Of a stretch of 64,000 nt of DNA, positions 6,350 through 47,293 are shown piece after piece. The stretch comes from Candidatus Micrarchaeota archaeon (GTDB lineage: Archaea > Micrarchaeota > Micrarchaeia > Anstonellales > Bilamarchaeaceae). The stretch lies in NCBI GenBank assembly GCA_018812715.1, contig JAHJCT010000017.1, positions 204,019 through 268,018 on the forward strand, read 5' to 3'. The position numbers were made by a program, and so were the translations under genes. Within the stretch, counting starts at the first letter, position 1. Every line of letters starts with the position of its first letter. The notes under the pieces were generated by a model. That model saw only the letters and a list, made by a program, of their open reading frames with translations. It was not told the origin of the DNA and did no database searches.

Positions 6350-6421
6350 TGACTAACTACCTTTGTATTTATTGTGTTAAGAAAGCTTAAAAAGAGGTGT
6401 CACAATAAGGATTTTCAGGGA

Positions 6422-11500: not shown

Positions 11501-14500
11501 AATGTTTCAAGTTGTGCCCTTACATTTGGCCTTGAGTATATGCGTCTTAATAAATTCCAATAGCCACTAGTCTCCCCTCTTGCCGTTTGTGCTGTGTCGT
11601 ATAAAGATTTCATGATATCTGCTATTCTCTGAGGACTAGAATTCAACAGGTTTTCAAGTTCTACTGCCTCTGTTCTTGCTGTTTGTGCTTCTTGCTCTGC
11701 AACCCTTATCTCTTCTGGTCTTGCCCCTCCTTCTCTAAGTTCTTCTACTCTGACTTCAAGTTCAGTAGCTCTTGTGCGTGCCCTACTTATTTCTAATTGT
11801 GCCAATTCAGGATCTAATACCATATCCAAAGTATTTCTAACTCCTTCGCCTGTTGTACTAAGTACTTCTTCAGCTTCAGGAAGTTCGGCCCTTGCATTTC
11901 TCTCTACTCTATCGCTTCTCCAATTTTGCCAGCGCTCTCTTCCAAATCTATACATTCGTTCAAAGCGTCCCCATCTTACTTCTGGTATTGGCCGAACTGG
12001 TCCACCACCTCCACCCTGGCCCCCACCAACGGTTGTATCAACAGGACCTATTCCTCCTTGTTGCACTCCTGGTGGCCTTGCTCCTCCCTCTTCAGCCATT
12101 GCTCTTACTTCAGGCATCTGCCTTATCATCATTGGACCTTCGCCTTCAACAAGATGAGGCCTGCGTGCCATTTCACTTGCAACAACATCTTCTATGTAAT
12201 AGTTGTAATCATTCACTGCCATTGCAACAGCTTCAGGTTCAAACATTGCTTCTATTTGTGATCTTGCATTTTCCAAAGCACGTTGTGAAAATGGAGTTGC
12301 TTCTCCAGTTTCAAAGTAATGCCTTACACTTGGATTCCTGATAAGTCCATCTATTATTTCTGCAACTTCAGGATTTTCTGCCCTTATATTCTCTAATGTT
12401 TGTTGTGCTGCAGCTCTATGAACTACATTTTCTCTTGCTGTTGTTCCTTCAGGTGTTAGCAATCCCTCAAGCAGCCAATCCAATCTTCCTGGCTGCAATG
12501 TTCCTGTGCTTTCAACTTCTGTTACTGGTCTTCCGCCTCTTGGCCCTGGCGTTGGAGGTTCTGGGCCTCTGAATATCATATCAATTACACTTGTCATATT
12601 TCCTCGTGCAAGTGGTGTCATTTCTCCTGTTACTAGGGCCTCTGGAACATGCATAAAGCTTGTATTTCCAATGCTGCCCGTCTCCATAAACTGCATTATT
12701 CTTCCTTGTACTTCCTCAGGCAGTGTTCTCAACCGTGCCTGTGCACCATCCCTTACAGTCGGGTCTTCACTTCTCAACTCTCTCATGAATTCAAACATTT
12801 CTTCTGGGGTTCGAAGTCTTTGTGCTTCTCTAACTGAAGGAATTTCATTAGGTTCTATTTCAATTGGAACCTCTCGCGGTTCCGGTGCCCTTATCTCTTC
12901 AGCTACAAGCTCAGTTTCTGTTCTTGCTTCTGTTGTTCCTCTTACTGGTCTGGCTCTCATAGCTTGCCATCCACGTGACCCTGCCATATGTGCCCATGGG
13001 AAAGCGGCCATTGCAGTTAGGAAAATTCCCTCCCGCATATTCCCTTCTGAAAAGGCATCAACTGCATGATATCCCATATATCCTGAGAAACCAACTCCAA
13101 TTCCAATGTTTGTATAATTAAGGGCTCTTACCACTTGTGTCATTCTAGTAGCATATGCAGTTCCTTGTGCAAACTGTGCTTCTGTACGTAAAACGCCTGC
13201 AAGTCCTCCGATACCCATAGTTGCTATTATCCCACCAAACATCAACCACGATGTCCAACTTGCTTCTCCTTGTACCCGGTATTCTGTAACTATCTGATCA
13301 AATGCCATAGTTGCAAAGAGCGACCCACCAAAAAGTTGTCCTCCAGGTACGAGACACGCTACAACCCCAACAGCAGTTAGTCCAACTGTAGTCCAAAATT
13401 GGTGGTCTGCTACTCGTTCCTGCATTCGATCTATGATTGCATTAGCATCATCAAATCTTCCCATGCCAACAAGGGCATATACATTGCCTTGATCGACAGC
13501 ATACTCTGCAAACATCTGGCTTCCTGAATCTGCAGGAATTGCGAATATTGATGCTTCAACAATTCTTGCACCATTCAAATCCAACTGCATTCTCTCTTGT
13601 GATCCAGACCCTCCTCTACCAAAGAGAATATAATGCATCGAATCTGTTTGCATTTCTCTGTAAGCATCCCAATAAGATCTATCTGGTTCGCTTCTCATAA
13701 ATTCTGCAAAATCTTCTGGGAAAAATATTGCCTCTCCTAATCGTTCTGCACCTTCAAGGAAGTTTTCAATACCTGTAGCAGTTAAATTCATCGCACTTCT
13801 TCCTTCATATGATGCCATAGCAGTTATCCTATGATCTATAGCAGCTTCATATGCTTCTTCAGCTTCCTGGAACCTTCCCTCCAAAATAAGATTTTGAGCT
13901 CTTTGCAAATCAGTATTACAATCTCTTAAATTATCTTCTGCTAAACTAAATCTATCTCCACCCCCAATTCTTATCATTCTTAGATATTCATCGTTTACTT
14001 CTATCTGCTGTCCTATCTGTGAATAAGCCATGGCTGCCCTGCTTTCTCCTTGCACTAATTCGAGCAGATAACTCATCACAGTTCCGCCTCTTAGCCCCTC
14101 TCCATATATTGGCAGATCATCTGTAGTATATTCTATCCCATCCATCTGTGTAAGCAGAGCATCTACTTCGGTAGAAAGATATATCACTTGCCTTAATCTT
14201 CCCATCTCAAGGTCTGATACTGCTCCAAATGTCTCTGGATGCTGTTCAATATAATCTGCCATTAAAGAAAGGCCATTGCTTGTTGTAGTAAATGCGCCTA
14301 CATCATGGCCATAATCCCATGCTGTTTGCCAAGCTCTTTCTCCTGTTGTTCCTCCTCCGCACATGTTTATGACATAAGCTCGGAATGCTTCAGTAAGTGC
14401 ATCATTTCCTTGCCTAAGTATTACTTCAGCATCTACTACTGTACTTCGTCTATGCACTCTTGTAGCAATTAATGACAATCGGTTCCAATATGTTTCACTT

Positions 14501-17097
14501 GCTTGTTCATATTCTCTTAAATTTCCACTAAAAGCCGCTTCTCTAAGTTCTTCAAGATCACTTCTTAAGCTATGCAATGGATAATCTCTGGCTATTGTTA
14601 AATCGCGCTCCCCATGACTTCTTTCATAACCTCTTATCTGTTCAGCAGTAACATATGCTGGAAATGTTCCATCCTCATTTCTTTCACCGAGTGGAATTTG
14701 TCCGGCTTCTACACCTTCTGCTATCGGCTCTCTTCCCCAGTAAATACCTGTTAATCTGTTATAATCAGCAATAAGCATTTCTGTTTGTACGATTCTTCTT
14801 GTTCCTCTATCAAACTGTTGTGCAGCTGCATAATGCTCTTCATCTGTTCCTGCATGCATTTCCATTTCTATTGCTTCAAGCATTATCCTTCTGCCTCTTC
14901 TGTATCCATATGGCACTTCTTCAGTTCCTTCTCGAATCATGCGTTCATGAGTAAATAGTTCATATCTCCAGCCTTCCTCTCTTCCTCCTTCAGCTGCACC
15001 ATAATAATCTCTTATATATTGCAGCAATAGATTTGCTCCCCGATAATCTCCAGCTTCGACTCTTTCTCTTACAATTCCTAATGCTTCATTTATTGTTGTT
15101 CTCCCAACTCCTCTTCTTTGTGCAAATGTCTCCAATCTGTTTGCTTCTGCTTCTATGTAAACTATCTGCGCTAAGTTGAAGCTTTCCATGAAGGCACCAT
15201 CATCACCTGGTTCGCCTTGTGCCATAGCCTGCAATTGTGTCTCCATTCCACTTAGGTGTATTGCATTTTCATCCGTAATTCTGGTGACTCTTCCATTGCT
15301 TACTACTCCAAGCCTTTGCACAGAATCAACATACATTGCAAGAAGTGTAAGTACTCTTGCTGCTTCTTGTGCATTCCCTTGTCTTGCAAGTTCTTCTGCA
15401 CGTTCAAGTGTTTGATTTACTATCCCTATCTGGAAAGTCATTCTTCTTGAACTCCAGTTTTCAATCAGTTCTCTGAATTGATCTGTTTCTCCTCTAACCT
15501 GGTGGTAAATCATTCCTATATTGAACTGCTCACTGGCATCTTCTCCTGCCATTTCACTTTGAAGTGCTTGTTCTATTGTTTCGCGTCCTTCCCAATCCCC
15601 CCAGCGATGCCCTTCATTTCTGTCATAATAAAATGAAATCATGTAAAGTAATCTTCTTGCTCCTTCGAAATCACCAAGCTTGAATCTTTCATCTGCAATG
15701 GCTGCTGCATTTCTGATAAGTTCTCTTCTCTCTTGCCCTCTTCTTCCTGTAATTGCTTGGAACCCTTCAATATCTACAAGCATGTGTGCCATGTCCATTT
15801 CAGTTGAATACTGTGCAAGCATTGATGAAGTAGGGCTTCTTCCTTCAATTATTATATTATATATTGTCTGATAACTCGGCAGATAATCTACTGCATGCCT
15901 ATCTAATTGTCTTGCAGACCGTTCAAGCAATCCTAAAGAAATGGCAAGTGCTGCAAGATTTCTATCTCCTCTTTGCAGTGCATCAAGTGCCTGTTGACCA
16001 TACCATTCCGGACTTTCTTCTGTTACTCTTCCTGTTCCACGTAAACTAGTAGCAATCATAGTCAGGTTTGCATCTCTTTCTTCTTCGCTTAATGGCATCT
16101 CTCTTCCAATTGTCATGAAATAGCTGGTTGTAATTCTTTCAAATTCCAACTGACCAATTATTTGTCCTTGTTCAAGTCTTCTGATTATTTCATCTAGTTC
16201 ATGCCTGAGATTTTCCATTTGCTGTCTCATCTGTTCATTTGTCTGTTGTTCTATTGCAAGTGCTATCTCATCTCTCCATTGGCTGAAGACTGTTGTGTTT
16301 ATCTCAGTCCATTGGTCCTTTATTGTTCCTATATTAGCTTCAAAAGACCAAAGCGATTGTCTATCTTCATGTTCCTGTTCACTAGTATACCCAATCCTTT
16401 GCCTCCCCTGGTTTCCTCTCTCCACTATAAAACCAAAGAGTGCATTTCTTTCCATTTCTACAGCTGAATTGTCGATATTGTAAATAGGAATATTCTCAAC
16501 GTACAATCTCCCTGCTTTTAGTACTGCCTCTGCTCTGCCGTGATTTGTTGTTGCAATATCTAATACAGAAGCTTCCAGGCTATCAAAAATAGTTTCAAGT
16601 GCATCTTCTGATTCCACGCCAGGAATCTGAATATTTTCAGGCATGCCCCCCGTTAGCATATGTAATTCTATATCAAATACATCTCCGACTGTTCTGAGCA
16701 TTGCCCTTGATCTTGTTATCATGTGGAATGATGCAGCAATGTTTCCTTCTCCACCAGTTGTTCTTGCATCATTTAATATCTGCTGAACTAAATCGAGTTC
16801 ATCCGTATACCTTTCTCCAAGTATTGGCAGTGCAGTTACTCTTAATCTCACTTGTTCCAATGTTTCTTCTGTTCTTTCTACTTCTGAATTAATGTATTCA
16901 ATAGTTGCATCATCAGGCCTGACAGTTAAGGTTCGCGCATGATCCTGGAGTGCACTAATCTCTCCAAGCACTTCATCCAATCCCTGTTCTAATTCTCTTC
17001 TTTGTTCATCCATTGCTTCTATTCTTGTTGGAATGATTGCAATTGGTAATCGTGTAATCTCCTCCTCTTCAGGTCTTTCTATTGTTGTTCCTCCCAT
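8533..17097 (-). CDS. Giant membrane protein, 2854 aa. TPR-like N-terminal region, central block of 4-5 TM helices, repeat modules, Trp-rich module and a conserved C-terminal domain.
   Basis: Single uninterrupted ORF. TPR-like segments (GDFEGARRLLYMISFYY, GDYRGANLLLQYIRDYY). Hydrophobic helices around 12960-13390 (FWTTVGLTAVGVVACLVPGG, WLMFGGIIATMGIGGLAGVL, IFLTAMAAFPWAHMA). IEAQRGELAPLL matches the VEAQREHLAPLL repeat of the upstream giant. Trp-rich module 10480-10700. C-terminal YRLLTSTIDRDMQLREGYGLTVSGEGEGLSVEV is shared with the 1463-aa protein. Confidence 0.85.
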   Translation of the reverse strand: MGGTTIERPEEEEITRLPIAIIPTRIEAMDEQRRELEQGLDEVLGEISALQDHARTLTVRPDDATIEYINSEVERTEETLEQVRLRVTALPILGERYTDELDLVQQILNDARTTGGEGNIAASFHMITRSRAMLRTVGDVFDIELHMLTGGMPENIQIPGVESEDALETIFDSLEASVLDIATTNHGRAEAVLKAGRLYVENIPIYNIDNSAVEMERNALFGFIVERGNQGRQRIGYTSEQEHEDRQSLWSFEANIGTIKDQWTEINTTVFSQWRDEIALAIEQQTNEQMRQQMENLRHELDEIIRRLEQGQIIGQLEFERITTSYFMTIGREMPLSEEERDANLTMIATSLRGTGRVTEESPEWYGQQALDALQRGDRNLAALAISLGLLERSARQLDRHAVDYLPSYQTIYNIIIEGRSPTSSMLAQYSTEMDMAHMLVDIEGFQAITGRRGQERRELIRNAAAIADERFKLGDFEGARRLLYMISFYYDRNEGHRWGDWEGRETIEQALQSEMAGEDASEQFNIGMIYHQVRGETDQFRELIENWSSRRMTFQIGIVNQTLERAEELARQGNAQEAARVLTLLAMYVDSVQRLGVVSNGRVTRITDENAIHLSGMETQLQAMAQGEPGDDGAFMESFNLAQIVYIEAEANRLETFAQRRGVGRTTINEALGIVRERVEAGDYRGANLLLQYIRDYYGAAEGGREEGWRYELFTHERMIREGTEEVPYGYRRGRRIMLEAIEMEMHAGTDEEHYAAAQQFDRGTRRIVQTEMLIADYNRLTGIYWGREPIAEGVEAGQIPLGERNEDGTFPAYVTAEQIRGYERSHGERDLTIARDYPLHSLRSDLEELREAAFSGNLREYEQASETYWNRLSLIATRVHRRSTVVDAEVILRQGNDALTEAFRAYVINMCGGGTTGERAWQTAWDYGHDVGAFTTTSNGLSLMADYIEQHPETFGAVSDLEMGRLRQVIYLSTEVDALLTQMDGIEYTTDDLPIYGEGLRGGTVMSYLLELVQGESRAAMAYSQIGQQIEVNDEYLRMIRIGGGDRFSLAEDNLRDCNTDLQRAQNLILEGRFQEAEEAYEAAIDHRITAMASYEGRSAMNLTATGIENFLEGAERLGEAIFFPEDFAEFMRSEPDRSYWDAYREMQTDSMHYILFGRGGSGSQERMQLDLNGARIVEASIFAIPADSGSQMFAEYAVDQGNVYALVGMGRFDDANAIIDRMQERVADHQFWTTVGLTAVGVVACLVPGGQLFGGSLFATMAFDQIVTEYRVQGEASWTSWLMFGGIIATMGIGGLAGVLRTEAQFAQGTAYATRMTQVVRALNYTNIGIGVGFSGYMGYHAVDAFSEGNMREGIFLTAMAAFPWAHMAGSRGWQAMRARPVRGTTEARTETELVAEEIRAPEPREVPIEIEPNEIPSVREAQRLRTPEEMFEFMRELRSEDPTVRDGAQARLRTLPEEVQGRIMQFMETGSIGNTSFMHVPEALVTGEMTPLARGNMTSVIDMIFRGPEPPTPGPRGGRPVTEVESTGTLQPGRLDWLLEGLLTPEGTTARENVVHRAAAQQTLENIRAENPEVAEIIDGLIRNPSVRHYFETGEATPFSQRALENARSQIEAMFEPEAVAMAVNDYNYYIEDVVASEMARRPHLVEGEGPMMIRQMPEVRAMAEEGGARPPGVQQGGIGPVDTTVGGGQGGGGGPVRPIPEVRWGRFERMYRFGRERWQNWRSDRVERNARAELPEAEEVLSTTGEGVRNTLDMVLDPELAQLEISRARTRATELEVRVEELREGGARPEEIRVAEQEAQTARTEAVELENLLNSSPQRIADIMKSLYDTAQTARGETSGYWNLLRRIYSRPNVRAQLETLAETDPVLRDILNRTGRTIESGARNAGISPEDYMAVQAREGFSANDVEVMIRAIEAQRGELAPLLRTQELLGIEYTPLERASLLPRLEGSDIIPPQMLVRELAGVQNSVEGRIREIPIADEPVTNVIRRTLLERSSQGGNVNDVLTEILRSPEVERAVRERYGREAAEIYRDAVQNNRTVDEILNVLEQGRAVEGAEPQFVPREMRTPLEGFVRNISQDPAFAQEFSAINALRPRINQVLDQASTAADVFARDTRPLRDDAINIGWRILRFLNNWEPLTNWGARRFVNSIRNAVPGGRIRAGLRNSPYLIPQAIAWYVIGNYAWDNVLLPWYNSLNSAGSVEEGRRLCERDFGNLCAGASDEDLEWLATEEGRRFFFHMPNALPRGRDRRPGNVEDLNQLLQRTDILIEPRRLGEIVADGREMGGRLDDINDLLSDMRRGDAEDRREAELAAILEPWGLTVDDVQGILSQERKEEVDITDLFDLRIPQWRERGLVIDFRDAVADAFCVDTGLISEGEAESGRYTREGGQRVDFLTSNTDVFAYLWEAVQGGHIPSVYLDNIMNDLTSEGRITELRQQVTSERDIYQVLEAHLRSQNLYIEVIEEDGTVTGIRQNSFLGLLDVRASLDPGFRDTYEQLLNQYRENNEALLAFNAFNIEDIRYGEENRVIGGDAIYGNPQELAALILESETPGEAVEAARQRGFVGSAVLGYMEPRLFDPENAHLVTFIAERSDEERLGFVRWLLDHRDNIRGHVLEIIEDASQHSTVPGPGRYTEIYEYLDRRATVYRSNGWWDGATPAEEQAREERERSRGTVTREETVEPVGEEFEAQYVRRPGFEVMTPRREDQIDVEEVHAPPATLSPEAQRFYANEESTLTPLLDGTIDRMIEARNDDGTLTEDAQAMVNAYGPEINSEDAETRERARDVVRADIKAEMYRLLTSTIDRDMQLREGYGLTVSGEGEGLSVEVDRRTARNGLRNHIMQYVSRRGER

Positions 17098-17511: not shown

Positions 17512-20500
17512 TTATTCATTTTCTCTGCCTACAAAGCTCAGAGTGTGTCTCTCTATGCCTCTTCTGGCTCTTCCCATATCTGTTATTTGAACAGCGAACT
17601 CTTCGCCTTCACCACTTACAGTGAGTCCATAGTCAGTACGGTGCTGTACGTCCCTTCGTATATCACTTGTAAGAAGTCTATACCACTCTGCTCTTATTGC
17701 CATTTCAGTTTGTTCTCTGTTCCCTTCAAATGCACTTCTTAGCAATTGACCGTCTTCTCCTTCATCAGTGAAGAGCCTTTCCAGGGTTCCGTCCAACATG
17801 CTGTTAAAGTCATTTTCAATAGTATAGAACTGTTGAGCCTCAGCGTTCAATTCTGTACCACTTCTCTCAGTTCCAGTTCCTCTAAATCTTTCTACTTCAT
17901 TGATGTATCCTGTATCAACAGCCCACTGTACACGAACACCTTGTGGATCTGAGAATGGATTATAGTCAGATACATTTCCACCATCTGCTTTGTGCCTTTG
18001 CAGTTCTTCAACAAATTCTTCAAGACGGTATCTGTTGAGTCTGTATCGTGCACCTCTGGTATCGACAAAGCTTGTCAGGAGCTCTCTTATATCCTGGTTT
18101 GTTGGCGCAAGAAGAGTGTATGCCATGCTATCTGAAATATCAAATTCAGAAAGTTCTCTTCTTAACTCCCTTCTTGCATATTGTTCAGAGGTATCTTCAA
18201 CCCATCCATTTGTTCTTGCAGTTGCCATTGCTTCATTGAATGTTTCTTCTAACATTACATCAGTTACAGGAACACGTCTTGTTTGCAATGTTTGTCCTTC
18301 CCCAGCTCTTGCTTGTGTTTTTTCTTCCCAAAGAGTAACAAATGCTTCTCTATTTTCTGGTTTGAGGTACTCGGTATGCTCTCCCCTTTCAGCCACTAAT
18401 GGAAGCATAAGTCTTCCTACTCTATCTCTTCCTTGTGCAAAGACAAAATCCACTAATCCAAGATCTGCTATATTATAATTATCCATTACTCTTTCTTGTT
18501 GCTCAGATACGAGGAATCCTCTTTCTACCCATTGCCTTGTATGTTCATTCATATAGTCATAGTCAACTGTTGCCCTCGTTCCCTCTTGTGCCATTAAATA
18601 ATCAACAAATTCATTTGTCATATTCCTGTTGAGTTTAAGGCCATCGGTTATCACAGTATATTCTACATCGATTATACAACAGAACTGATTTCCTGATTCC
18701 CATTCATCTTCAATTGCTAGTGGTTCCCAGTTTTCTACATCATCCATACTTTCAATACCAAGTTCTCTGCATGAATTAGGTATTACTAATCCCGGTGTTG
18801 CTGGAGGCCTTTCAACTGCTTCTCCTGTTCCCTCGGCTACTTCATTAGTTCCTTCAGCTACCTCGCCAGTTCCTTCTGCATTTTCTTCTCTAGGCGGAGG
18901 TTGTGCTCTAGAGGTAGAACCTGCACTTGTTTCCTGAGAACAATTAGCTATGTCATCATCATCCAGTTCGTTTACATCTCTAACATGTTTCAATGTTCTT
19001 CTCTCTTGGAAGAATGTAAGAACACCTTCATTATCATGTTCAACTTGATTATCCCTTAGCCAGTCTAATCTTTCCTCACCTGTAACTCCATATGCAGTTG
19101 TGTAATAACTATCCTCTCTTTCTGCAAGTCGTTCTGGAATGTCGTAACTATCATTTATCATTCTCTTATTTGAGAGCTCACCTTGCATCGGAGACCACCA
19201 TTCCCAAGGTGCTCGGTCGAAGTGGTTTCCAAAATGATTAAAGCTCCAACGCCATGGCATCGCATTCCATGAGAATGGATTGTACCAATGACCTGTAGTT
19301 GATGTACCAATGCGATAGGTCCAAGGTTTGTACCATGCTCCGTTTGGTGTTGTTGTCATCCATTCATTTGGTGATGTGAACCATGCAACACCAAAAGATC
19401 CTATCAAGTATGCTTTGAGTGCTCCTTTCCAAAGTCCCCTCAACCATCTCGGGTAATGTTGGTATGTGTGAGCCTTTCCTGTAATTGGATTTCTACCAAC
19501 AACTTGCTTATTCCAATTTCGTTTCTTAAGATCATCAACTGTTTCTCCAAAGCCCCAACTTGAAAGTCTTCTAAGACGCCCACCTCTAAAATTACCTTGT
19601 GACTTTCCTATCCATGCTTCGCTTGTAAATAATCTCCAGAACCATTTATCTTTGAACTTTTGCCATTTTCCTACAGTTACTTTTGGAGACGGATCCCAGC
19701 TTTCTTTTGTAGCTTCCCAGATCGTTCTTGCTATAACAAATTGACCTTGAGGTATTTCACCTAAGTTTTCAGCAGTTCTTTTATGAAGCATTTCAACTGA
19801 TTTTTCAGCTGCTTTTCCTAATGGCTTGGAATACTTATTTTCTATTTTTACCAGCATCTCTTCTAATGAAGCACGAGGATACTTTCTAGTTTCTATTGCC
19901 TTTACAACTGTCAGCATTCTTTTTCTTACTTCATCAGGCAATTCTGCTCCTTCTACTTTTGTTCTTAATGCAGTTGCTTTTGTATCAAATGCTTCAAGCT
20001 TATATCTGAAAAGTTCTTCGCTTTCACCTTTACCTTTTCGTTCTTGTATCACTGCATCATATTCTGCTTTAGTAATACTTCTTGCTCTAAGCAGTTCATC
20101 CAATTGTTCTGCAGTTTTTGTTCTCAATCCTTGTTCTGTTGAAGGAATACCAAACAATTGCTGGCAGTCGTCCATACGATCAAGAACTTTCTTTGTATCT
20201 TTCATCAATTCACTGATAACTGGATTGCCTAGCCACTCTCCTGCTCTATTTGGAAGTTCATGAATTAATTCTGTACTCACTTCTCTGCAGTCAAGCATAT
20301 GCTTTTTGAAGTTTTCAGAGTATGTCCGTACTACATTTTCAAATCTGCCATTTTCAGTTCCTTGTATTCCACCTAATTCTGCTGAAAGTGTATCAAATAT
20401 TTCTTTTGCTTGAGTATACTCGTCCTCTATTCTCGCCCCCCTAGCAGACAAACTCAGTCCACGGGTATTAAATTCACTAATTCGCTGTCTTGCAATTACT

Positions 20501-21903
20501 AATTCTTGTTCTGCAGTATCCTTCTCTTCAGTAGCTTTTCTTTCTGCATCCTCAATCTGTTTTTGTGTTGCTTTTGCCTTTCCTTCTGCAACAAGCTGTT
20601 TTAGTTTTACAACTTTATCATACTGTTCTGTTTTTTCTACAACAGTTGCTTCGGCTCGTTCAACCAGTCTCTCTGCATCTGCCCTTTCGTTTCTAAATTC
20701 TGAAATTTCGTCATCTATTGCATCTACTCTTGCTGCACTTTCTTCCATGACGCTTTCAGCAGCAGCTCTCCGTACCATCATGTCTTCAACAGTTTGTCGT
20801 TGGCTTGGTCTGCATGGTCCAAATCCTTCAACATCAACAAAATGACCTGTTCCTGGAATACCTAGCCCTTCAACTGTCTCATTTGTAGGTGTTAAAAGAA
20901 TTGCACGAACGAATTGCCTGAAATTATCTGCAGCCATATCTATTGCTATAGATGTTCTTGATTCAAGATAAGCATCCACATAACTTCCATCAAGTACACG
21001 ACGATTAGTTTCTTGAGTATTCTCCGAGTCCATGCTTCTGGTCCCAGAAAGTTGCTTTAAAACACTACCTATGAATTCTCCTTCTTTTCCTGGGCTGAGT
21101 CTTTGTGCGACATTTTCAAGAAATCTAAAGAATGCGTCTGGAGGTAACGCTACTCCTTCTGGCCATGTTTCATGAGTCCACAATGATTCATATAATTTAT
21201 CTCCCCTTTCATCTCTTACACAATTTCCTTGTTCATCTTCTTGCTCAATCGGATTCCCCTTATCATCTAATTTAAATCTAGATCCGATCATTTGCGAATA
21301 AATAATATCAATTCTATCAGCATCAAAATCTTCGACTCTTCCTTCACTTAACTCTTGAGCAAGTCTTTGCCTTACGGCATACATTCTTTCTGCATACGCA
21401 GTATCAAGTTCTTCAAGCGGTGTCGGCACCGTCGGTTTCTTCAACCCATCAATAAATTCTTTTCTGCATACAATCTCTCTTATAAGCATATCAAAGCCAG
21501 AACTTGTCCTGCCCTGTCCTCTTCGTATTGCATCTACCAATTCTAATGTAAATTTAGTCAAATACTCTGCATTTGCTGTATCAGCACCGCTTTGCGGGGT
21601 TCCTCCGGCACCATGCCGTGTATCTTTATCTTGCCCTCGTTCTCCTCTCAGTTCTTTTAATCTTTCTTCTTTAGCAAATTCAATTCTTGCGTCTTTATCT
21701 GCTCTTTTTCGAGCTTTATGATCTTTTCTTAATTCAGGACTTAATGCAGCCCCCAGAACGGGCACTCTCTCTGCCATATATTTGTAACTCTTTGCAGAGC
21801 GACTTTCTCCACCTCTTGCCCAATCAAATACTCTTTGCCTTATACCAGCTTTCTCAGCCTGTTTATCTCTTCCCTGAGCCCTATCTATAACACTACCCGT
21901 CAT
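17512..21903 (-). CDS. Giant protein, 1463 aa, paralogous to the 2854-aa protein. Coiled-coil N-terminal half, Trp-rich module and a conserved C-terminal domain.
   Basis: Uninterrupted ORF. Trp-rich module 19190-19680 (WFWRLFTSEAW...GGRLRRLSSWGFG...YLIGSFGVAWF...PWEWW) aligns with the 2854-aa segment WRILRFLNNWEPLTNWGARRF...GGRIRAGLRNS...YVIGNYAWDN. The last ~100 aa (AEAQQFY...WYRLLTSDIRRDVQHRTDYGLTVSGEGEEFAVQI) align with the 2854-aa C-terminus. TATA-like TTTACTATTTAAT and GGAGG lie upstream of the ATG. Confidence 0.85.
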   Translation of the reverse strand: MTGSVIDRAQGRDKQAEKAGIRQRVFDWARGGESRSAKSYKYMAERVPVLGAALSPELRKDHKARKRADKDARIEFAKEERLKELRGERGQDKDTRHGAGGTPQSGADTANAEYLTKFTLELVDAIRRGQGRTSSGFDMLIREIVCRKEFIDGLKKPTVPTPLEELDTAYAERMYAVRQRLAQELSEGRVEDFDADRIDIIYSQMIGSRFKLDDKGNPIEQEDEQGNCVRDERGDKLYESLWTHETWPEGVALPPDAFFRFLENVAQRLSPGKEGEFIGSVLKQLSGTRSMDSENTQETNRRVLDGSYVDAYLESRTSIAIDMAADNFRQFVRAILLTPTNETVEGLGIPGTGHFVDVEGFGPCRPSQRQTVEDMMVRRAAAESVMEESAARVDAIDDEISEFRNERADAERLVERAEATVVEKTEQYDKVVKLKQLVAEGKAKATQKQIEDAERKATEEKDTAEQELVIARQRISEFNTRGLSLSARGARIEDEYTQAKEIFDTLSAELGGIQGTENGRFENVVRTYSENFKKHMLDCREVSTELIHELPNRAGEWLGNPVISELMKDTKKVLDRMDDCQQLFGIPSTEQGLRTKTAEQLDELLRARSITKAEYDAVIQERKGKGESEELFRYKLEAFDTKATALRTKVEGAELPDEVRKRMLTVVKAIETRKYPRASLEEMLVKIENKYSKPLGKAAEKSVEMLHKRTAENLGEIPQGQFVIARTIWEATKESWDPSPKVTVGKWQKFKDKWFWRLFTSEAWIGKSQGNFRGGRLRRLSSWGFGETVDDLKKRNWNKQVVGRNPITGKAHTYQHYPRWLRGLWKGALKAYLIGSFGVAWFTSPNEWMTTTPNGAWYKPWTYRIGTSTTGHWYNPFSWNAMPWRWSFNHFGNHFDRAPWEWWSPMQGELSNKRMINDSYDIPERLAEREDSYYTTAYGVTGEERLDWLRDNQVEHDNEGVLTFFQERRTLKHVRDVNELDDDDIANCSQETSAGSTSRAQPPPREENAEGTGEVAEGTNEVAEGTGEAVERPPATPGLVIPNSCRELGIESMDDVENWEPLAIEDEWESGNQFCCIIDVEYTVITDGLKLNRNMTNEFVDYLMAQEGTRATVDYDYMNEHTRQWVERGFLVSEQQERVMDNYNIADLGLVDFVFAQGRDRVGRLMLPLVAERGEHTEYLKPENREAFVTLWEEKTQARAGEGQTLQTRRVPVTDVMLEETFNEAMATARTNGWVEDTSEQYARRELRRELSEFDISDSMAYTLLAPTNQDIRELLTSFVDTRGARYRLNRYRLEEFVEELQRHKADGGNVSDYNPFSDPQGVRVQWAVDTGYINEVERFRGTGTERSGTELNAEAQQFYTIENDFNSMLDGTLERLFTDEGEDGQLLRSAFEGNREQTEMAIRAEWYRLLTSDIRRDVQHRTDYGLTVSGEGEEFAVQITDMGRARRGIERHTLSFVGRENE

Positions 21904-27532: not shown

Positions 27533-27566
27533 CTTATTAAAAAATATGCGCTTCTATCTCTATATG

Positions 27567-28220
27567 ATGAAACCTATTCTTAACGGAGTTTATCAAATAG
27601 ACAATTCCCTGGCCACTCTTAGTGCTGATCCTGGTCGTAAAGTATACAATGAAAGATTAATCAAAAAAGAAGGCAAGGAATATCGCCTATGGGATGCCTT
27701 TCGCAGCAAACTTGCAGCTGCTCTAAAAAAAGGGCTGAAAACCTTCCCATTCAACAAAAACAGCAAAGTCCTTTATCTTGGCGCTTCTTATGGCACAACT
27801 GTTTCTCATCTTTCAGATATTCTAGAAGATGGTGAAATCTACGCTGTTGAATTTGCCCCTCAGTGTATGCATGATCTGATTGAACTTGCAGAGAGAAGAG
27901 AAAATATAATTCCAATACATGGAGATGCAAGAAAACCAGACCAATATGAAGAAGTTGGCGAAGTTGATATTATCTATCAAGATGTTGCGCAGCCAGACCA
28001 AGATGATATTCTGCTAAAAAACGCCAAAGTCTTTCTCAAAAAAGATGGCATTGCGATGTTTTGTATAAAAAGCCAGAGTATAGATGTTACTAAGGATCCA
28101 AAAGAAATTTTTGAAATGGTGATAAGCAATTTGGAAAAAGATTTCGAAGTCCTAGAGAAAATAAAATTAGATCCATTTGATAAGGACCATCTTTTCCTTG
28201 TTTTGAAATATCTTGGTTAA
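27567..28220 (+). CDS. flpA: Fibrillarin (rRNA/tRNA 2'-O-methyltransferase)
   Basis: MKPILNGVYQID...KVLYLGASYGTTVSHLSDI...IYAVEFAP...IHGDARKP...VDIIYQDVAQPDQ are classic fibrillarin motifs. The start is set at the internal Met. A TATA-like TTATTAAAAAATAT lies upstream. Confidence 0.9.
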   Translation: MKPILNGVYQIDNSLATLSADPGRKVYNERLIKKEGKEYRLWDAFRSKLAAALKKGLKTFPFNKNSKVLYLGASYGTTVSHLSDILEDGEIYAVEFAPQCMHDLIELAERRENIIPIHGDARKPDQYEEVGEVDIIYQDVAQPDQDDILLKNAKVFLKKDGIAMFCIKSQSIDVTKDPKEIFEMVISNLEKDFEVLEKIKLDPFDKDHLFLVLKYLG

Positions 28221-33862: not shown

Positions 33863-34425
33863 AGCTTGTAGTTATTGAGGGTATAGACGGCTGCGGGAAG
33901 GAGACTCAGATAAAACTCCTAAAAGAAAAGTTCCCTAACGCAGTTGTATTCAAATACCCAACGAAACGCTATTCTTTACTCAATGACTATCTTGAAAAAA
34001 AAGCTGAATTAAACCCAAAAGCCCTTTTCCTTTTATTTCTCTCAGATATAGCCAATGAGCAGAAAAAAGTAAAAAAAACCCTTGAAGATGACAAACTTGT
34101 AATTCTGGATCGCTATGTTTTCTCAACTATTGCCTATGAAATTAATGGCATCTCTTACAAACAAGGAAAAAAAATTGTCGAAGATTGTGATTTTCTAAAA
34201 CCCGACATGGTTCTTCTCCTTGATATAACCTCAGAAACTTCACAAAGTCGTAAGAAAAAGCAAAAACAGCTCGATCGTTATGAAGAAAATGCAGAATACC
34301 TCGAACAAGTAAGATCAAATTTTTTGAAACTCTCTGAAGAAAGGTTTTTAACACCTAATTGGCACAGAATTGACGCTAGCAAGGATATAAATTCAATCCA
34401 TGCAGAAATAATGAAACTTCTTTAG
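33859..34425 (+). CDS. tmk: Thymidylate kinase
   Basis: MKLVVIEGIDGCGKETQ P-loop and the DRY motif (LDRYVFS). The start at the ATGA overlaps the upstream stop. Confidence 0.8.
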   Translation: MKLVVIEGIDGCGKETQIKLLKEKFPNAVVFKYPTKRYSLLNDYLEKKAELNPKALFLLFLSDIANEQKKVKKTLEDDKLVILDRYVFSTIAYEINGISYKQGKKIVEDCDFLKPDMVLLLDITSETSQSRKKKQKQLDRYEENAEYLEQVRSNFLKLSEERFLTPNWHRIDASKDINSIHAEIMKLL

Positions 34426-34609
34426 CTGCGTTCGTCTAGTCCGGCCAAGGATAGTGGACTTTCACAAACTTTTTGAAAAACAGCAAAGAACTTTGTTCTT
34501 TGTGCCCCATGAAAACCATTCGGTTTTCATTCGGGAAGTTTGATCAAAAACCAAATCTCGAAAAGTTTGAAGAACTCCATTGACCTGGGTTCGAATCCCA
34601 GACGCAGCA
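34425..34609 (+). tRNA. tRNA-Glu(UUC) with an intron of about 112 nt at the canonical 37/38 position
   Basis: Acceptor GCUGCGU/ACGCAGC, D-arm GUC-UAGUCCGGCCAAG-GAU, anticodon stem GUGGA/UCCAU around loop CUUUCAC, T-arm CUGGG-UUCGAAU-CCCAG, discriminator A, no encoded CCA. The intron ends AAACUUUU and AAAAGUUU can pair as expected for a bulge-helix-bulge motif. An oligo-T follows. Confidence 0.8.
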
Positions 34610-34617
34610 TTTTTTCT
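34610..34617 (+). terminator. Oligo-T tract after tRNA-Glu (archaeal-type terminator)
   Basis: TTTTTTCT lies immediately 3' of the discriminator base. Confidence 0.5.
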
Positions 34618-34707
34618 TGAATAGCAGATGCCATTCACCAATATGTAATTTGCTCAAAAAATAACCGTACCAAACTATTTATAGCGTAAGGGCATATCTT
34701 TGAAACA

Positions 34708-35181
34708 ATGAAGGCCATACTTTTCGAGCCGAAATACCAGAAAGCAGTGCTTGAACTGAACGAACTTGCATTGAAACGATCGAAATACATAGGAAAAACA
34801 GTGGACTCTAACTGGCACGATGATCTCGTAAAAATAAAGGAATTATATTTGGATAATAATGGTGCTTTTTTGCTATGGCTTGTTGGTGACAAGCTAATAG
34901 GAATGGGTGGTCTTCTCAAAGTTGATACAAATACCGCCAATATCAAGAGAATAAGGGTACATCCAGATTACCAGCATAAAGGATTATCTAGCGAAATTTT
35001 AGCAGAACTGGAAAAGAGAGCGAGGGTGCTTGGTTATAATCGACTAATCACAAACGTTGCTAAAGGCAACATCCCTGCAGAAAAAATGTTTCTTAAAGCT
35101 AATTTCAAACCAGTTGAAGAAAAACATTTCTTTTCTGTACTCTGCACTGTTTTTGAAAAAAAGTGCGAAGTACTTTATTAA
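34708..35181 (+). CDS. GNAT-family N-acetyltransferase
   Basis: RVHPDYQHKGLSSEILAELEKRA matches GNAT motif A. 157 aa. Confidence 0.7.
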   Translation: MKAILFEPKYQKAVLELNELALKRSKYIGKTVDSNWHDDLVKIKELYLDNNGAFLLWLVGDKLIGMGGLLKVDTNTANIKRIRVHPDYQHKGLSSEILAELEKRARVLGYNRLITNVAKGNIPAEKMFLKANFKPVEEKHFFSVLCTVFEKKCEVLY

Positions 35182-35207
35182 CCTGGCGTTGAATCCCAGA
35201 ACTGCAA
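35182..35207 (+). repeat. Degenerate copy of the tRNA-Glu 3' end (T-arm and acceptor)
   Basis: CCTGGCGTTGAATCCCAGAACTGCAA against the tRNA CCTGGGTTCGAATCCCAGACGCAGCA (about 20 of 26 identical). It lies 573 nt downstream of the tRNA 3' end, just past the GNAT stop. Confidence 0.5.
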
Positions 35208-35269
35208 TCCGTTTAGGATTTGCTGAATACAAACACAGTATTATATTAAACAAACCCATATTTTTGATT

Positions 35270-36175
35270 ATGCGAATTTTTCTTTTCCTTTTCTTAATTT
35301 CTCTTACATTTGCAGCAAATGTAACTCCATTTCTTAATTTAGAATTAGAAACTAGTTGTCCAGGCAATTTCCTCAACATAACAACCATCTTATCTAATGG
35401 TACAGCGGCAGCAGATGTAGAACTTCGACTTGTACGTCATATTCCCTATCAAGGCCTTCGTGCTATTCAACATACTAATGAAAATGGGACAGCATCTGTA
35501 GAATTAACAAACACAGGTGAATATCGTATCTACATTGAAAACAGCGATTACTACAATAGTGATACATTTGTAGAGTTCAATTACTCTGAGATGTGTCCTC
35601 TTCCTCCTCCAGAAGAGTTTAATCTCTCTATTGAAGTAAATTGCAATGCCAGCATCCTCAAAATAACTGCAAGTAAAGATGGAATCCCATTGGAAAATGT
35701 TTTCATAAACACACAGAATTGGTCTTCTCTCACCGGAACTACTGGAACTGTTTTCTTTCTGCTTGAAGAAGGTTGGACTTTGATACGTGCAAATAAATCT
35801 GGATATGTTTACAAAGAATCAATTATAAACATAGTTTGCACACCGCCAGAATGCATTACAGATGAGAATTGCACCTATAATCAATATTGCTTCAATGAGA
35901 GTTGCATCAATCTCACTGGTGTATGTGGCTATCCAGAAAATCATTCATGGATTGGATATGAGTGCTGTGAAGATGGGGGTTGTGAAATGAATTTTGTATG
36001 TCTGAATAACAGCTGCATTTCATTGCCTCCACAGCCTGAAAATATAAACAATGTTTCCCTAAACCAAACTGTCTCTCAAGAAGAACCTGCAGAACCCCCC
36101 TGTATTGCGGCATTATTGCTACTATTTATTTTGCTATTGACCACTTTATTGAACTACGTTCAATATGCGCCTTGA
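35270..36175 (+). CDS. Secreted Cys-rich surface protein paralog C (301 aa) with signal peptide and C-terminal hydrophobic anchor
   Basis: MRIFLFLFLISLTFAANVTP signal. Cys-rich CGYPENHSWIGYECCEDGGCEMNFVCLNNSC matches the module in the 1021- and 1189-aa proteins. C-terminal PCIAALLLLFILLLTTLL. The start is set at the internal Met; the ORF track extends further upstream. Confidence 0.7.
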   Translation: MRIFLFLFLISLTFAANVTPFLNLELETSCPGNFLNITTILSNGTAAADVELRLVRHIPYQGLRAIQHTNENGTASVELTNTGEYRIYIENSDYYNSDTFVEFNYSEMCPLPPPEEFNLSIEVNCNASILKITASKDGIPLENVFINTQNWSSLTGTTGTVFFLLEEGWTLIRANKSGYVYKESIINIVCTPPECITDENCTYNQYCFNESCINLTGVCGYPENHSWIGYECCEDGGCEMNFVCLNNSCISLPPQPENINNVSLNQTVSQEEPAEPPCIAALLLLFILLLTTLLNYVQYAP

Positions 36176-36235: not shown

Positions 36236-36548
36236 TGGAGTGGGCTTTCTGCTTGAAAATAAATTTTCAAGATCAGCCAACTTTGCATAAGCAAAGTGGG
36301 CTTTCCAGTTAGCCTTGACATGAATATAAGGAGCCAATATCCGCTACTCAATCCTGGATCTTATAAGCACGGAACGATACATTTAGGGCTGCTTCTTCCG
36401 ATCTGACCCGGTTCATATATAATCCCGCCACATAAGGCAGGACGTCAACGCTTAAGATACTGGGCATACATCCACGGCAAAACGCCCCAGACCTTCGAGT
36501 CGCCTAAGGGGATTTGCGATGCCGGGACCCCTAGCCCCGCTCTAGCCC
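36236..36548 (-). ncRNA. Signal recognition particle RNA (7S / SRP RNA)
   Basis: The minus strand reads GGUCAGAUCGGAAGAAGCAGCC, the helix-8 GGAA-tetraloop and GCAGCC motif of SRP RNA. Alu-domain-like 5' loops (GGGGUCCCGGCAUCGC...GACUCGAAGGUC). Helix-6-like hairpin CCUGCC-UUAUGU-GGCGGG. The 5' GAGCGGGGCU can pair with the 3' AGCCCACUCC. The 3' boundary is approximate. Confidence 0.75.
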
Positions 36549-36585
36549 ATTATTATAACGAAATTCTCCTTTTTAAAACGCATAC
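36549..36585 (-). promoter_or_regulatory. TATA-box promoter of the SRP RNA
   Basis: On the transcribed strand CGTTTTAAAAAGGAGAATTTCGTTATAATAAT precedes GGGCUAGAGC. The TTTTAAAAA element sits about 25-32 nt upstream of the inferred 5' end. Confidence 0.5.
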
Positions 36586-44927: not shown

Positions 44928-45045
44928 AATGCAGGAGGCGCTTGAATCGAGCTTCATTACAGTCAGTTTTTTGCCTCACTTTTCAAGGATCAGTTTTTTG
45001 GTTCTTTTTTCCTAAAAAAGAACAATGCAGGAGGAAGGACATTCG
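44928..45045 (+). repeat. Direct repeat copy 1 (~115 bp) flanking the PIN/antitoxin cassette
   Basis: Shares an ~85-bp identical core AGCTTCATTACAGTCAGTTTTTTGCCTCACTTTTCAAG[G/A]ATCAGTTTTTTGGTTCTTTTTTCCTAAAAAAGAACAATGCAGGAGGAAGGA with 45787-45903. Contains the palindrome GTTCTTTTTT-CCT-AAAAAAGAAC. Confidence 0.85.
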
Positions 45046-45087: not shown

Positions 45088-45507
45088 TTATAACTTCTGC
45101 CCCAGCATTTCAATGAGTTCTTTTGTTGTGAGAACCTTTACCCCTTTCTGTTTCTTGAAGTGTTTATCATCACTCCAAATAGGAGCTTTGGTTGCCAAAG
45201 CTGCCGCAATGAACGGGACATCAGCTGAATCTATTTTTTCCATTATCCCCTTTGCTTCTCCCATGTATATAACAATTATTTTATCGTCTAGAATAGTCAT
45301 TTTTGAAAAAAGCTTGTTCAGAATCATCTCGAGATCTGTTTCTGATATTTTTGCTTTCTTGAGAATCTCCTTCTTATGATTGCCTAGTTCTTCCATTGAA
45401 AAGCCAATCGTAATGAGTTCTCCATCGAAATGGGTGATGATTTTCCTGGAAACCCCATCTCGCACTAGGGCAGCGATGATTCTGTTGGTATCTACAACAA
45501 GCCTCAT
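45088..45507 (-). CDS. PIN-domain ribonuclease (VapC-like toxin)
   Basis: N-terminal LVVDTN signature, central D and C-terminal acidic residues. 139 aa. Overlaps the upstream small ORF by 4 nt. Confidence 0.75.
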   Translation of the reverse strand: MRLVVDTNRIIAALVRDGVSRKIITHFDGELITIGFSMEELGNHKKEILKKAKISETDLEMILNKLFSKMTILDDKIIVIYMGEAKGIMEKIDSADVPFIAAALATKAPIWSDDKHFKKQKGVKVLTTKELIEMLGQKL

Positions 45508-45725
45508 TTTGAGAACCTTTTTCTCATTTTAGCTTTTACGTCATGGCCTATTCTCTCGGCATCTTCTTCAGTCATCTTACTGTTCTTCAGAACTTCGTCC
45601 ATCCAATGCAGCTCTCTAATTTTCTTCTCGAAAGCCTGTCTGGCCACGTCGCTCCATTTGAGCTCTGAATGGGCAATCATCTCTTTGTAGAGTTCTTCTG
45701 GAATCGAAAGCGTCATGTTAACCAT
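45504..45725 (-). CDS. Putative antitoxin of the PIN toxin
   Basis: 73 aa. It sits upstream of and translationally coupled to the PIN gene. The N-terminal MVNMTLSIPEELYKEM is typical of ribbon/AbrB-like antitoxins. Confidence 0.55.
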   Translation of the reverse strand: MVNMTLSIPEELYKEMIAHSELKWSDVARQAFEKKIRELHWMDEVLKNSKMTEEDAERIGHDVKAKMRKRFSK

Positions 45726-45786: not shown

Positions 45787-45903
45787 AATGCAAGAAAGGC
45801 ACTCGAAGCAAGCTTCATTACAGTCAGTTTTTTGCCTCACTTTTCAAGAATCAGTTTTTTGGTTCTTTTTTCCTAAAAAAGAACAATGCAGGAGGAAGGA
45901 TTG
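45787..45903 (+). repeat. Direct repeat copy 2 (~115 bp)
   Basis: See copy 1. Both copies lie about 60 nt upstream of a minus-strand gene start (44869 and 45725). Confidence 0.85.
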
Positions 45904-46179
45904 ACGGCACTATTTTAGAGCACCAGTTTTTGGTGCAGCTTTCTAAAAAGGTGCATTCGAACCTTCGAAGGCGCGTAGCCCATGTGCCTTTTAGTAAAAG
46001 GCACCCCAAAACGGGGAGTTACATGTTAAGCCAGCAGATTTCCCAAACCGCAATTGGAAAAGGAAAATAACGCGACTATTTACGACCTTGTTTGTTGTTC
46101 CTCAGGCCTTTTTCCAGGGTTTTTGGCCGTGGAATGGCAGAGGTCAAAAGGCCCCTTGAGTCTGCCACGTTTGACCGCT

Positions 46180-46362
46180 TCGCTACTCCTGCAGAAACTT
46201 TCCTTAGATGAAACAATTGTTAAAGTTTCATCAAACTTCCTGAGTTTTCCTCAGGATTGGAGTTGCGAATCGTGAACGGATTGCCGTTCAGGTACTTCGC
46301 TACTCCTGCAGAAACTTTCCTTAGATGAAACAATTGTTAAAGTTTCATCAAACTTCCTAAGA
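46180..46362 (+). repeat. Two tandem copies of a ~66-bp unit (46180-46245 and 46297-46362) containing the palindrome GATGAAAC-N10-GTTTCATC
   Basis: TTCGCTACTCCTGCAGAAACTTTCCTTAGATGAAACAATTGTTAAAGTTTCATCAAACTTCCT occurs twice, 12-190 nt downstream of the ferredoxin stop. A third partial copy lies at 47262-47293. Confidence 0.8.
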
Positions 46363-46658: not shown

Positions 46659-47240
46659 TCATTTTCTTGCGAAAACAAGATAAGCTGTATGCATAAGACC
46701 AAAATGCTTGGGTCTGAATCCTCGCTCTCTTGCCTCATATTCTCTTACAATTCCTTCTATTGTAAACACTTCACTAAAAACCCCTTCAGCAGCAATATGG
46801 AGTGCTTTTGCCTGTTCTGCATGCAAACAATGTGCTGCCAAATATCCATTCTTCTTCAGTGCCTTGTCTGCCATTTCAACTACTTTTTCTGCTTCTGCTA
46901 TATCACAAAAAACAAGATCCCAGGACCCATCGTTTTCATCTATTCCCTCCAGTACATCTTTATGCCTGAAAGTAACATTTTTCAATCCGCTGCGCTCAAC
47001 ATTTTTCTGTGCAAGGGCTAAAAATTCATCTCGTTTCTCATAACTTACGACTTCTTTAACAATATTGGCCAGTTGGACTGTCATAAAGCCTGTCCCTGAA
47101 CCAAGTTCAATTACTTTTGATTCTTTGCCAATGCCAGTATACCCAATTATCAATCCTGCATCCTTTGGTTGTGTTACTGCTGGGCCTCCTCTTTTCAATT
47201 TTGTCAATAATGCAGGAAAATGAAATTCAGTTTTCTTCAT
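46659..47240 (-). CDS. SAM-dependent methyltransferase, TrmI/Gcd14-like (tRNA m1A)
   Basis: QPKDAGLIIGYTGIGKESKVIELGSGTGFMT resembles the TrmI pKD..I motif and SAM motif I. It is shorter than typical (193 aa). A PIMT-like alternative cannot be excluded. Confidence 0.5.
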   Translation of the reverse strand: MKKTEFHFPALLTKLKRGGPAVTQPKDAGLIIGYTGIGKESKVIELGSGTGFMTVQLANIVKEVVSYEKRDEFLALAQKNVERSGLKNVTFRHKDVLEGIDENDGSWDLVFCDIAEAEKVVEMADKALKKNGYLAAHCLHAEQAKALHIAAEGVFSEVFTIEGIVREYEARERGFRPKHFGLMHTAYLVFARK

Positions 47241-47261
47241 AGAAACTTTCCTCCGGCCATT

Positions 47262-47293
47262 CTCATGTTAAAGTTTCATCAAACTTCTTAAGG
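47262..47293 (+). repeat. Third (half) copy of the GTTAAAGTTTCATCAAACTTC element
   Basis: CATGTTAAAGTTTCATCAAACTTCTTAAGG lies between the purE stop and the trmI-like start. Confidence 0.7.

Follow-up and report, generated by a model that had tools for sequence, protein, structure and literature searches.

The tRNA-Glu(UUC) gene and its surroundings

The analysed window, a 64-kb stretch of contig JAHJCT010000017.1 from a Candidatus Micrarchaeota archaeon, contains an interrupted tRNA-Glu(UUC) gene directly behind tmk, the gene of dTMP kinase. The features discussed below are collected in Table 1. Default tRNA finders overlook this intron-bearing gene (0 tRNA called by ARAGORN in default mode across the whole window), and even an intron-aware search yielded one tRNA gene in the 64 kb: tRNA-Glu(ttc) at [34425,34609], composed of 75 bases and a 110-nt intron. 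The exon assembly of the initial annotation was accepted in this search at identical coordinates; its lengths, 73 nt for the tRNA and ~112 nt for the intron, were each off by 2. No further tRNA gene was found in the window by ARAGORN with introns of <=300 nt, by an Rfam E-value scan or by a search for T-loop motifs.

The exons were assembled by hand into an acceptor stem GCUGCGU / ACGCAGC, a D arm GUCU-AGUCCGGCCAA-GGAU, an anticodon arm GUGGA-CUUUCAC-UCCAU, a variable loop UGAC, a T arm CUGGG-UUCGAAU-CCCAG and the discriminator base A, with standard pairs in 21/21 stem positions. The anticodon UUC is located at 34461-34463 and is followed by A37 at 34464; CCA is not encoded. The spliced exons matched an uninterrupted tRNA-Glu gene in a related Micrarchaeota genome (locus L004) at every base (100% identity), exon 1 being identical to the 5' part of that gene, and the L004 gene itself scored 59.4 bits on the Rfam tRNA model RF00005 (gathering score 29). 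The joined exons are thus a canonical archaeal-type tRNA-Glu(UUC), as had been proposed. Matches to the D-arm pattern GTCTAGTCCGGCCAAGGAT..CTTTCA were obtained in only 10 genomes, all of them DPANN archaea, when 185,579 species representatives were searched.

The tmk stop codon TAG is located at 34423-34425 and its final base is G1 of the tRNA; this 1-base overlap had been recognised in the initial annotation. The encoded Tmk was 100% identical to MBU0532468.1 of 'Candidatus Micrarchaeota archaeon', with Ca. Bilamarchaeum among the relatives. The host is therefore a member of the Micrarchaeota (DPANN), an archaeal lineage in which disrupted tRNA genes are frequent, in line with what had been surmised from the intron. 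Downstream, a T6 run follows the discriminator base, and T-rich 3' flanks were present at most orthologous loci. Upstream, tmk codes through the 75 nt before the tRNA at every locus, and a convincing TATA box at the right distance was not seen there.

Table 1. Positions of the features of the tRNA-Glu(UUC) locus and of related elements in the window
Feature	Position	Strand	Basis or remark
tmk, dTMP kinase, 188 aa	33859..34425	+	PF02223, E = 2e-32
tRNA-Glu(UUC) exon 1, 40 nt	34425..34464	+	acceptor 5' strand, D arm, anticodon stem 5' strand, loop bases 32-37; ARAGORN -i, hand pairing
Central helix H, 5' strand (C32 U33 U34 U35, CUUU)	34459..34462	+	4/4 standard pairs with GAAG
5' bulge, 3 nt (C36 A37 / C)	34463..34465	+	register set by exon boundaries; predicted cut 34464/34465
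BHB intron, 110 nt, between positions 37 and 38	34465..34574	+	ARAGORN -i, hand register check
Outer helix h', 5' strand (AAACUUUUUGA)	34466..34476	+	11/11 standard pairs with 34558-34568; kept in minimum-free-energy folds
Lineage-specific insert in intron, 55 nt	34481..34535	+	single gap in global alignment with the 52-nt L006 intron
Outer helix h', 3' strand (UCGAAAAGUUU)	34558..34568	+	11-bp pairing with 34466-34476
Central helix H, 3' strand (GAAG)	34569..34572	+	4-bp pairing with CUUU
3' bulge, 3 nt (A A / C38)	34573..34575	+	predicted cut 34574/34575
tRNA-Glu(UUC) exon 2, 35 nt	34575..34609	+	C38, anticodon stem 3' strand, variable loop UGAC, T arm, acceptor 3' strand, discriminator A
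T6 run, likely archaeal oligo-T terminator	34610..34615	+	directly 3' of discriminator base; function inferred
Module copy	44989-45023	-	30.4 bits
Module copy	45850-45884	-	30.4 bits
Module copy	45922-45955	-	22.6 bits
Module copy	45983-46017	+	32.8 bits
EndA-family protein, 160 aa	51630..52112	+	PF01974, E = 8e-12, 45.5 bits (cut-off 27)

Splice motif and variability of the intron

Since an AC repeat is present at both junctions, the sequence alone would permit an intron at 36/37, 37/38 or 38/39. ARAGORN had picked 38/39, one base 3'; only the register at 37/38, the site named in the initial annotation, yields the archaeal bulge-helix-bulge (BHB) motif. In this register, the exon-intron junctions form a strict hBHBh' motif, in which helix h is the anticodon stem (5 bp), both bulges comprise 3 nt, the central helix H comprises 4 bp and the outer helix h' 11 bp. 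Cleavage after the second base of a bulge is an established feature of this motif in archaea. The pairing of the intron ends described earlier, AAACUUUU/AAAAGUUU, is real and reaches 11 bp when extended; it represents the outer helix h', however, and not the central helix of the BHB.

Folding of the junctions likewise gave a BHB-compatible structure. The whole pre-tRNA folded with z = -6.7, and imposing the BHB on each of the seven orthologous introns raised the folding energy by 1.1-6.3 kcal/mol above its minimum. A structural switch between a local hairpin and h', an idea derived from repeated 3' strands in the introns of L006, L014 and L022, was dropped because the minimum-energy folds of the seven orthologous introns retain h' and the BHB constraint costs 1-6 kcal/mol.

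The order tmk followed by tRNA-Glu(UUC) is kept in 16 further loci; the search pattern that led to two of them, L012 and L013, demanded an intron. No intron was present in L003, L004, L011, L016 (=L017), L019, L020, L021 and L023. Introns at 37/38 measured 52 nt in L006, 53 nt in L022, 70 nt in L013, 75 nt in L012, 105 nt in L014 (gene 800-979) and 212 nt in L015 (gene 605-891), next to the 110 nt of the window. In the gene of L018 (2567-2765), position 37/38 is free of an intron, and the interruptions are one of about 80 nt in the D-loop and one of about 38 nt in the T-loop. Among more distant DPANN archaea, tRNA-Glu introns of 28-29 nt were found in L002 and L005, and a tRNA-Glu gene with two introns (37/38 and T-loop) in L010, a Woesearchaeota metagenome-assembled genome (MAG; 6100-6275, reverse strand). 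The latter gene was overlooked by ARAGORN, and for L015 and L014 the intron-aware program set the introns wrongly and named the genes tRNA-Ser(aga) and tRNA-Stop(tta), respectively.

The strict motif was found in 10/10 DPANN tRNA-Glu introns at 37/38 (AC stem, 3-nt bulge, 4-bp H, 3-nt bulge, h' of 3-12 bp). On an alignment anchored on the splice sites alone, 99.2% of the cells were paired, and sliding the partner by 1-3 columns lowered this value to 37-52%. Changes on both sides were observed in 4/4 pairs of h', e.g. AAAC/GUUU, GGCC/GGCC and GCGC/GCGC. As the motif is kept by compensatory change in relatives, it is under selection; as the gene is also syntenic, a chance assembly is not at hand. 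On this comparative evidence, the intron-bearing tRNA-Glu genes are almost certainly spliced.

With high confidence, the locus is accordingly read as a tRNA-Glu(UUC) gene of an archaeon of the Micrarchaeota (DPANN) that is functional and contains an intron whose splicing is predicted. Several points weigh against this reading. The support for splicing consists of sequence and predicted folds. The nearest-neighbour minimum-energy fold moves the bulges slightly, by 3.9 kcal/mol, with h' retained. A T5 run at 34470-34474 inside the intron could terminate archaeal RNA polymerase prematurely. The one EndA homologue of the window apparently lacks the catalytic Tyr and His (see below), and since the window spans only 64 kb, a second, intact tRNA-Glu(UUC) copy may be present elsewhere. 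With regard to the T5 run, it was observed separately that a stretch of T4-T5 is held at the equivalent place in related introns.

Taken alone, the intron folded at -36.2 kcal/mol (z = -5.2 against shuffled sequences), with an interior of three hairpins closed by h'. In a global alignment with the L006 intron of 52 nt (z = 9.0), it was matched over its full length apart from a single 55-nt gap. This insert holds two perfect hairpins at 34484-34502 (8 bp, loop UUU) and 34509-34530 (9 bp, loop AUUC), extra copies of which were not found in the window, and it was missing from every relative compared. A similar picture was obtained for L015 and L014, whose Tmk proteins are 97% identical and whose introns comprise 212 and 105 nt: the extra length of L015 corresponds to four additional perfect hairpins, identified by eye and visible in the minimum-free-energy fold. 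Judged from these alignments, the lengthening of the intron is an addition of hairpins inside a core with constrained ends. A core intron of ~52 nt, common to another genome, would have gained the 55-nt insert of two perfect hairpins, and the interior would vary freely provided that the BHB motif forms. Most likely, the interior has no function of its own. The description of the intron as unusually long is valid against the <100 nt given for archaeal tRNA introns in a review (PMC4033280), but not within its clade, where orthologues measure 105 and 212 nt.

Possible lateral exchange and other readings

A further reading concerns the origin and spread of the intron and adds to its splicing as a tRNA intron rather than competing with it: the intron would itself be a small mobile element exchanged between Micrarchaeota lineages, or derive from one, and would be tolerated at 37/38 since its ends complete a BHB. 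Two clades were separated by aspartate carbamoyltransferase (ATCase) identity, clade Y (window, L013, L022, L003) with 79-88% and clade X (L006, L019, L012, L018) with 81-93%, at about 70% between X and Y. The exon variants track these clades (GCUGCG.../UUCGAAU in Y, GCUCCG.../UUCAAAU in X). All significant similarities between introns, by contrast, cross the clades, and introns within a clade are mutually unlike. For L012 (X) and L013 (Y), z was 31, with 91% identity over 56 nt. A z of 9.5 was obtained both for the window (Y) with L006 (X) and for L014 with L022 (Y), and L014 also matched L006 at z 7.4. The D-loop intron of L018 (X) resembled the intron of L013 at z 6.0, the L013-type allele thus occupying the D-loop of tRNA-Glu in L018 as well. 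Four-fold degenerate sites were saturated, with identities of 14-19% for window/L006 and 21-37% for L012/L013. The GC content of the L006 intron was 32.7% in a locus of 57% and was thus close to that of the window intron, 34.5% in 38.2%. Enlargement through perfect hairpins (52 to 110 nt, 105 to 212 nt) also points in this direction.

Because the window intron resembles that of L006 and not that of the closer relative L022, a constrained vertical history does not account for the pattern, and at least one lateral replacement would be needed. Against the exchange stand the few loci and the definition of the clades on two proteins, the recovery of L012 and L013 with an intron-requiring pattern, and the A/U-rich, low-complexity nature of the 5' module described below. 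No transposase, homing endonuclease or reverse transcriptase was linked to the intron, viral contigs (IMG/VR) gave 0 matches to the tRNA pattern, and strong purifying selection plus repeated loss could imitate part of the pattern. Given the small sample, it is held only tentatively, as a serious possibility short of the favoured view, that the 37/38 tRNA-Glu intron behaves as a laterally exchanged modular element without a protein gene.

The covariance model of the 5' module was built from the initial 35 nt of the introns in L006, L014 and L022; in this module, CAAAAAC comes after a hairpin NNNNN-UUUU(U)-AGG-AAAA(A)-NNNNN. This model gave four intergenic matches in the window within 1.1 kb (Table 1), and the next best scored 14 bits; the matches, at 22.6-32.8 bits, count in favour of a mobile element. 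In a regex control, 2 independent matches were obtained where about 0.13 were expected. The module is also found antisense at the 3' end of the L014 and L015 introns, which thereby have inverted-repeat ends. For the intergenic copies, oligo-T terminators acting in both directions are one possibility and remnants of a small element another. A second intron-bearing RNA was considered around 45983-46017, where drawing by hand gives part of a BHB-like register, but an outer helix and a host RNA are lacking.

Two of the module copies are located inside direct repeats around a PIN/antitoxin cassette. These repeats (44936-45039 and 45797-45900; 104 nt, 95% identical) enclose a PIN-domain toxin gene at 45088-45507 and a small upstream open reading frame (ORF) at 45504-45725, both on the reverse strand; the repeat-flanked cassette looks duplicated or inserted. 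Repeats of 67 nt were observed on the forward strand at 46178-46244, 46295-46361 and 47226-47292; their ends (AGAAACUUUCC ... GUUAAAGUUUCAUCAAACUUC) are conserved, and their middle parts vary. This repeat family had no Rfam match and is possibly a small RNA or a regulatory element. A 14-mer common to the L006 intron and to three window repeats (D1 family) was treated as chance because it is also found inside the Bud32 coding sequence.

It is unlikely that the long intron encodes a functional small RNA freed by splicing, i.e. a box C/D guide or another stable circular RNA. The strong structure of the intron (z = -5.2), the fibrillarin gene in the window and the recurrence of the core parts CUUUUUG and CAAAAAC in related introns would fit such a product. 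Against it, the intron contained no C box even when 1 mismatch was allowed and no D box (CUGA), and no significant Rfam family. The sole CD-box match, to snoZ13_snr52, was on the opposite strand and at chance level (15.7 bits, gathering score 47, E = 3.7). Moreover, the 55-nt insert that gives the intron its length is present in no relative, and half of the orthologous tRNA-Glu genes are intronless. A box C/D or other known small RNA in the intron was therefore rejected for want of boxes and of an Rfam match.

A tRNA pseudogene broken by an insertion, or an assembly artefact, is very improbable. It is true that default tRNA finders overlook the gene and that a Logan contig of identical sequence breaks within the intron. 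Yet the exons are intact and identical to the functional-looking L004 orthologue, the insertion is placed exactly at 37/38 and completes a strict BHB with covariation in relatives, and the sequence recurs both in a MAG at NCBI and in SRA data from an independent run. The Logan contig (L001, SRR2540949) corresponds to window positions 34509-35979 with 100% identity and begins inside the intron at the second hairpin, probably as an assembly break at an inverted repeat.

A self-splicing group I or group II intron has next to no probability: group I introns are known in Micrarchaeota, but in rRNA genes (PMC6125680), and here 110 nt are too short for a catalytic core (group I typically >200 nt, P3-P9), the Rfam intron families gave no match at E up to 10 for the locus and E up to 1 for the window, and the intron ends carry the strict BHB motif. 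Nor is it a BHB intron with a homing endonuclease, as it contains no ORF.

Predicted processing, genomic context and comparison with known introns

The EndA-family protein of 160 aa is the sole splicing-endonuclease homologue in the window and is encoded 17 kb from tRNA-Glu; the presence of such a gene counts in favour of the tRNA intron reading. Its nearest solved relative was the homotetrameric endonuclease of M. jannaschii (1A79, E = 3e-12), while the NCBIfam model TIGR00324 (endA) gave a score of 35.5, below the cut-off of 59.6. In the alignment with 1A79, RLYERG stands against RLHRKG and DKEHSVY against GEDKTYY, i.e. the catalytic Tyr is replaced by His and the His by Lys, with Lys retained; the replacement of Tyr by His was found again in the alignment with A. 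fulgidus. The spacing of Tyr107, His117 and Lys148 in the 1A79 chain fits the known catalytic triad Y115/H125/K156. As Tyr and His appear to be replaced, a catalytic subunit must be encoded elsewhere, outside the window, and the 160-aa protein is probably a non-catalytic, structural beta-like subunit, which would fit a heteromeric endonuclease. Heteromeric splicing endonucleases have been linked to broad specificity (PMC5829648), and such an enzyme would fit the non-canonical introns of L018.

Following the established archaeal pathway, the precursor would be transcribed together with tmk or from a promoter inside the tmk 3' end and would stop at the T6 run. An EndA-family tRNA-splicing endonuclease would cut both 3-nt bulges (34464/34465 and 34574/34575), an RtcB-type ligase would join the exons and probably circularise the intron, and RNase P and the CCA-adding enzyme would complete the tRNA ends. 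RtcB was not seen in the window.

Further archaeal genes of the window encode Cdc48 (tblastn match to L004), eIF-6, L31e, S19e, prefoldin and SRP54, as well as a small RIO/APH-type kinase that was read as Bud32 (PF01163, PF01636). On the forward strand, a fibrillarin gene was located at 27546-28220 and a gene of an Elp3-like radical-SAM/GNAT protein at 54520-56028; no box C/D small RNA was found in the window by Rfam. A signal recognition particle (SRP) RNA at 36294-36552 on the reverse strand scored 65.2 bits on the bacterial large-SRP model, the sole model passing its gathering score, and 69.4 bits on the archaeal model (threshold 96.5); it is a divergent, archaeal-type DPANN SRP RNA. Giant ORFs were present on the reverse strand at 2-6352 (open at the window start, >2117 aa), 8533-17097 (2854 aa) and 17512-21903 (1463 aa).

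With the canonical archaeal hBHBh' introns at 37/38 that are cut by EndA, the tRNA-Glu intron shares the site, the 3-nt bulges, the 4-bp H on bases 32-35 and the flanking helices, and an EndA-family gene is likewise present in the genome. It differs in its length of 110 nt, compared with <100 nt (PMC4033280). Its interior, a three-hairpin multiloop, is a second difference.

The tRNA-Trp intron of Haloferax volcanii, about 105 nt long, is also a long BHB intron at 37/38 that is probably released as a circle. According to the passages citing it in PMC4090602 and PMC7714728, it carries a box C/D guide RNA. The tRNA-Glu intron resides in another tRNA, lacks C, D, C' and D' boxes and owes its extra length to a non-conserved hairpin insert.

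The transposed tRNA introns of Thermoproteales (Fujishima et al. 2010), as far as the summary in PMC4033280 describes them, resemble the present ones in the occurrence of similar sequences at different sites or hosts and in rapid gain and loss; here, one allele type is found at 37/38 in L012 and L013 and in the D-loop of L018. Measured against the same summary, the host is a DPANN archaeon and the sharing is between genomes at one gene, not among the tRNA species within a genome.

Disrupted tRNA genes together with a broad-specificity epsilon2 or loop-bearing EndA are known from ARMAN-2 / Ca. Micrarchaeum and other DPANN archaea (PMC5829648). ARMAN-2 belongs to the same phylum-level group as the present host, and the window relatives L018 and L010 carry non-canonical D-loop and T-loop introns. 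The window intron, in contrast, is fully canonical, and the EndA homologue is a 160-aa single unit, not epsilon2, and seemingly non-catalytic.

The sequence at 34425-34609 is a real example of an already known kind of gene, notable for the length of its intron and for the fast change of this intron among relatives. Since tRNA finders miss or misname such genes, DPANN genomes can appear to be without tRNA-Glu. At one site, related genomes contain no intron or introns of 52, 53, 70, 75, 105, 110 and 212 nt, and introns in the D-loop and T-loop occur in addition; this series shows constraint on the BHB motif only. The locus thus provides a case for the gain, loss, enlargement and possible exchange of protein-spliced introns. 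If the exchange is true, endonuclease-spliced introns without homing enzymes would be mobile between DPANN genomes.

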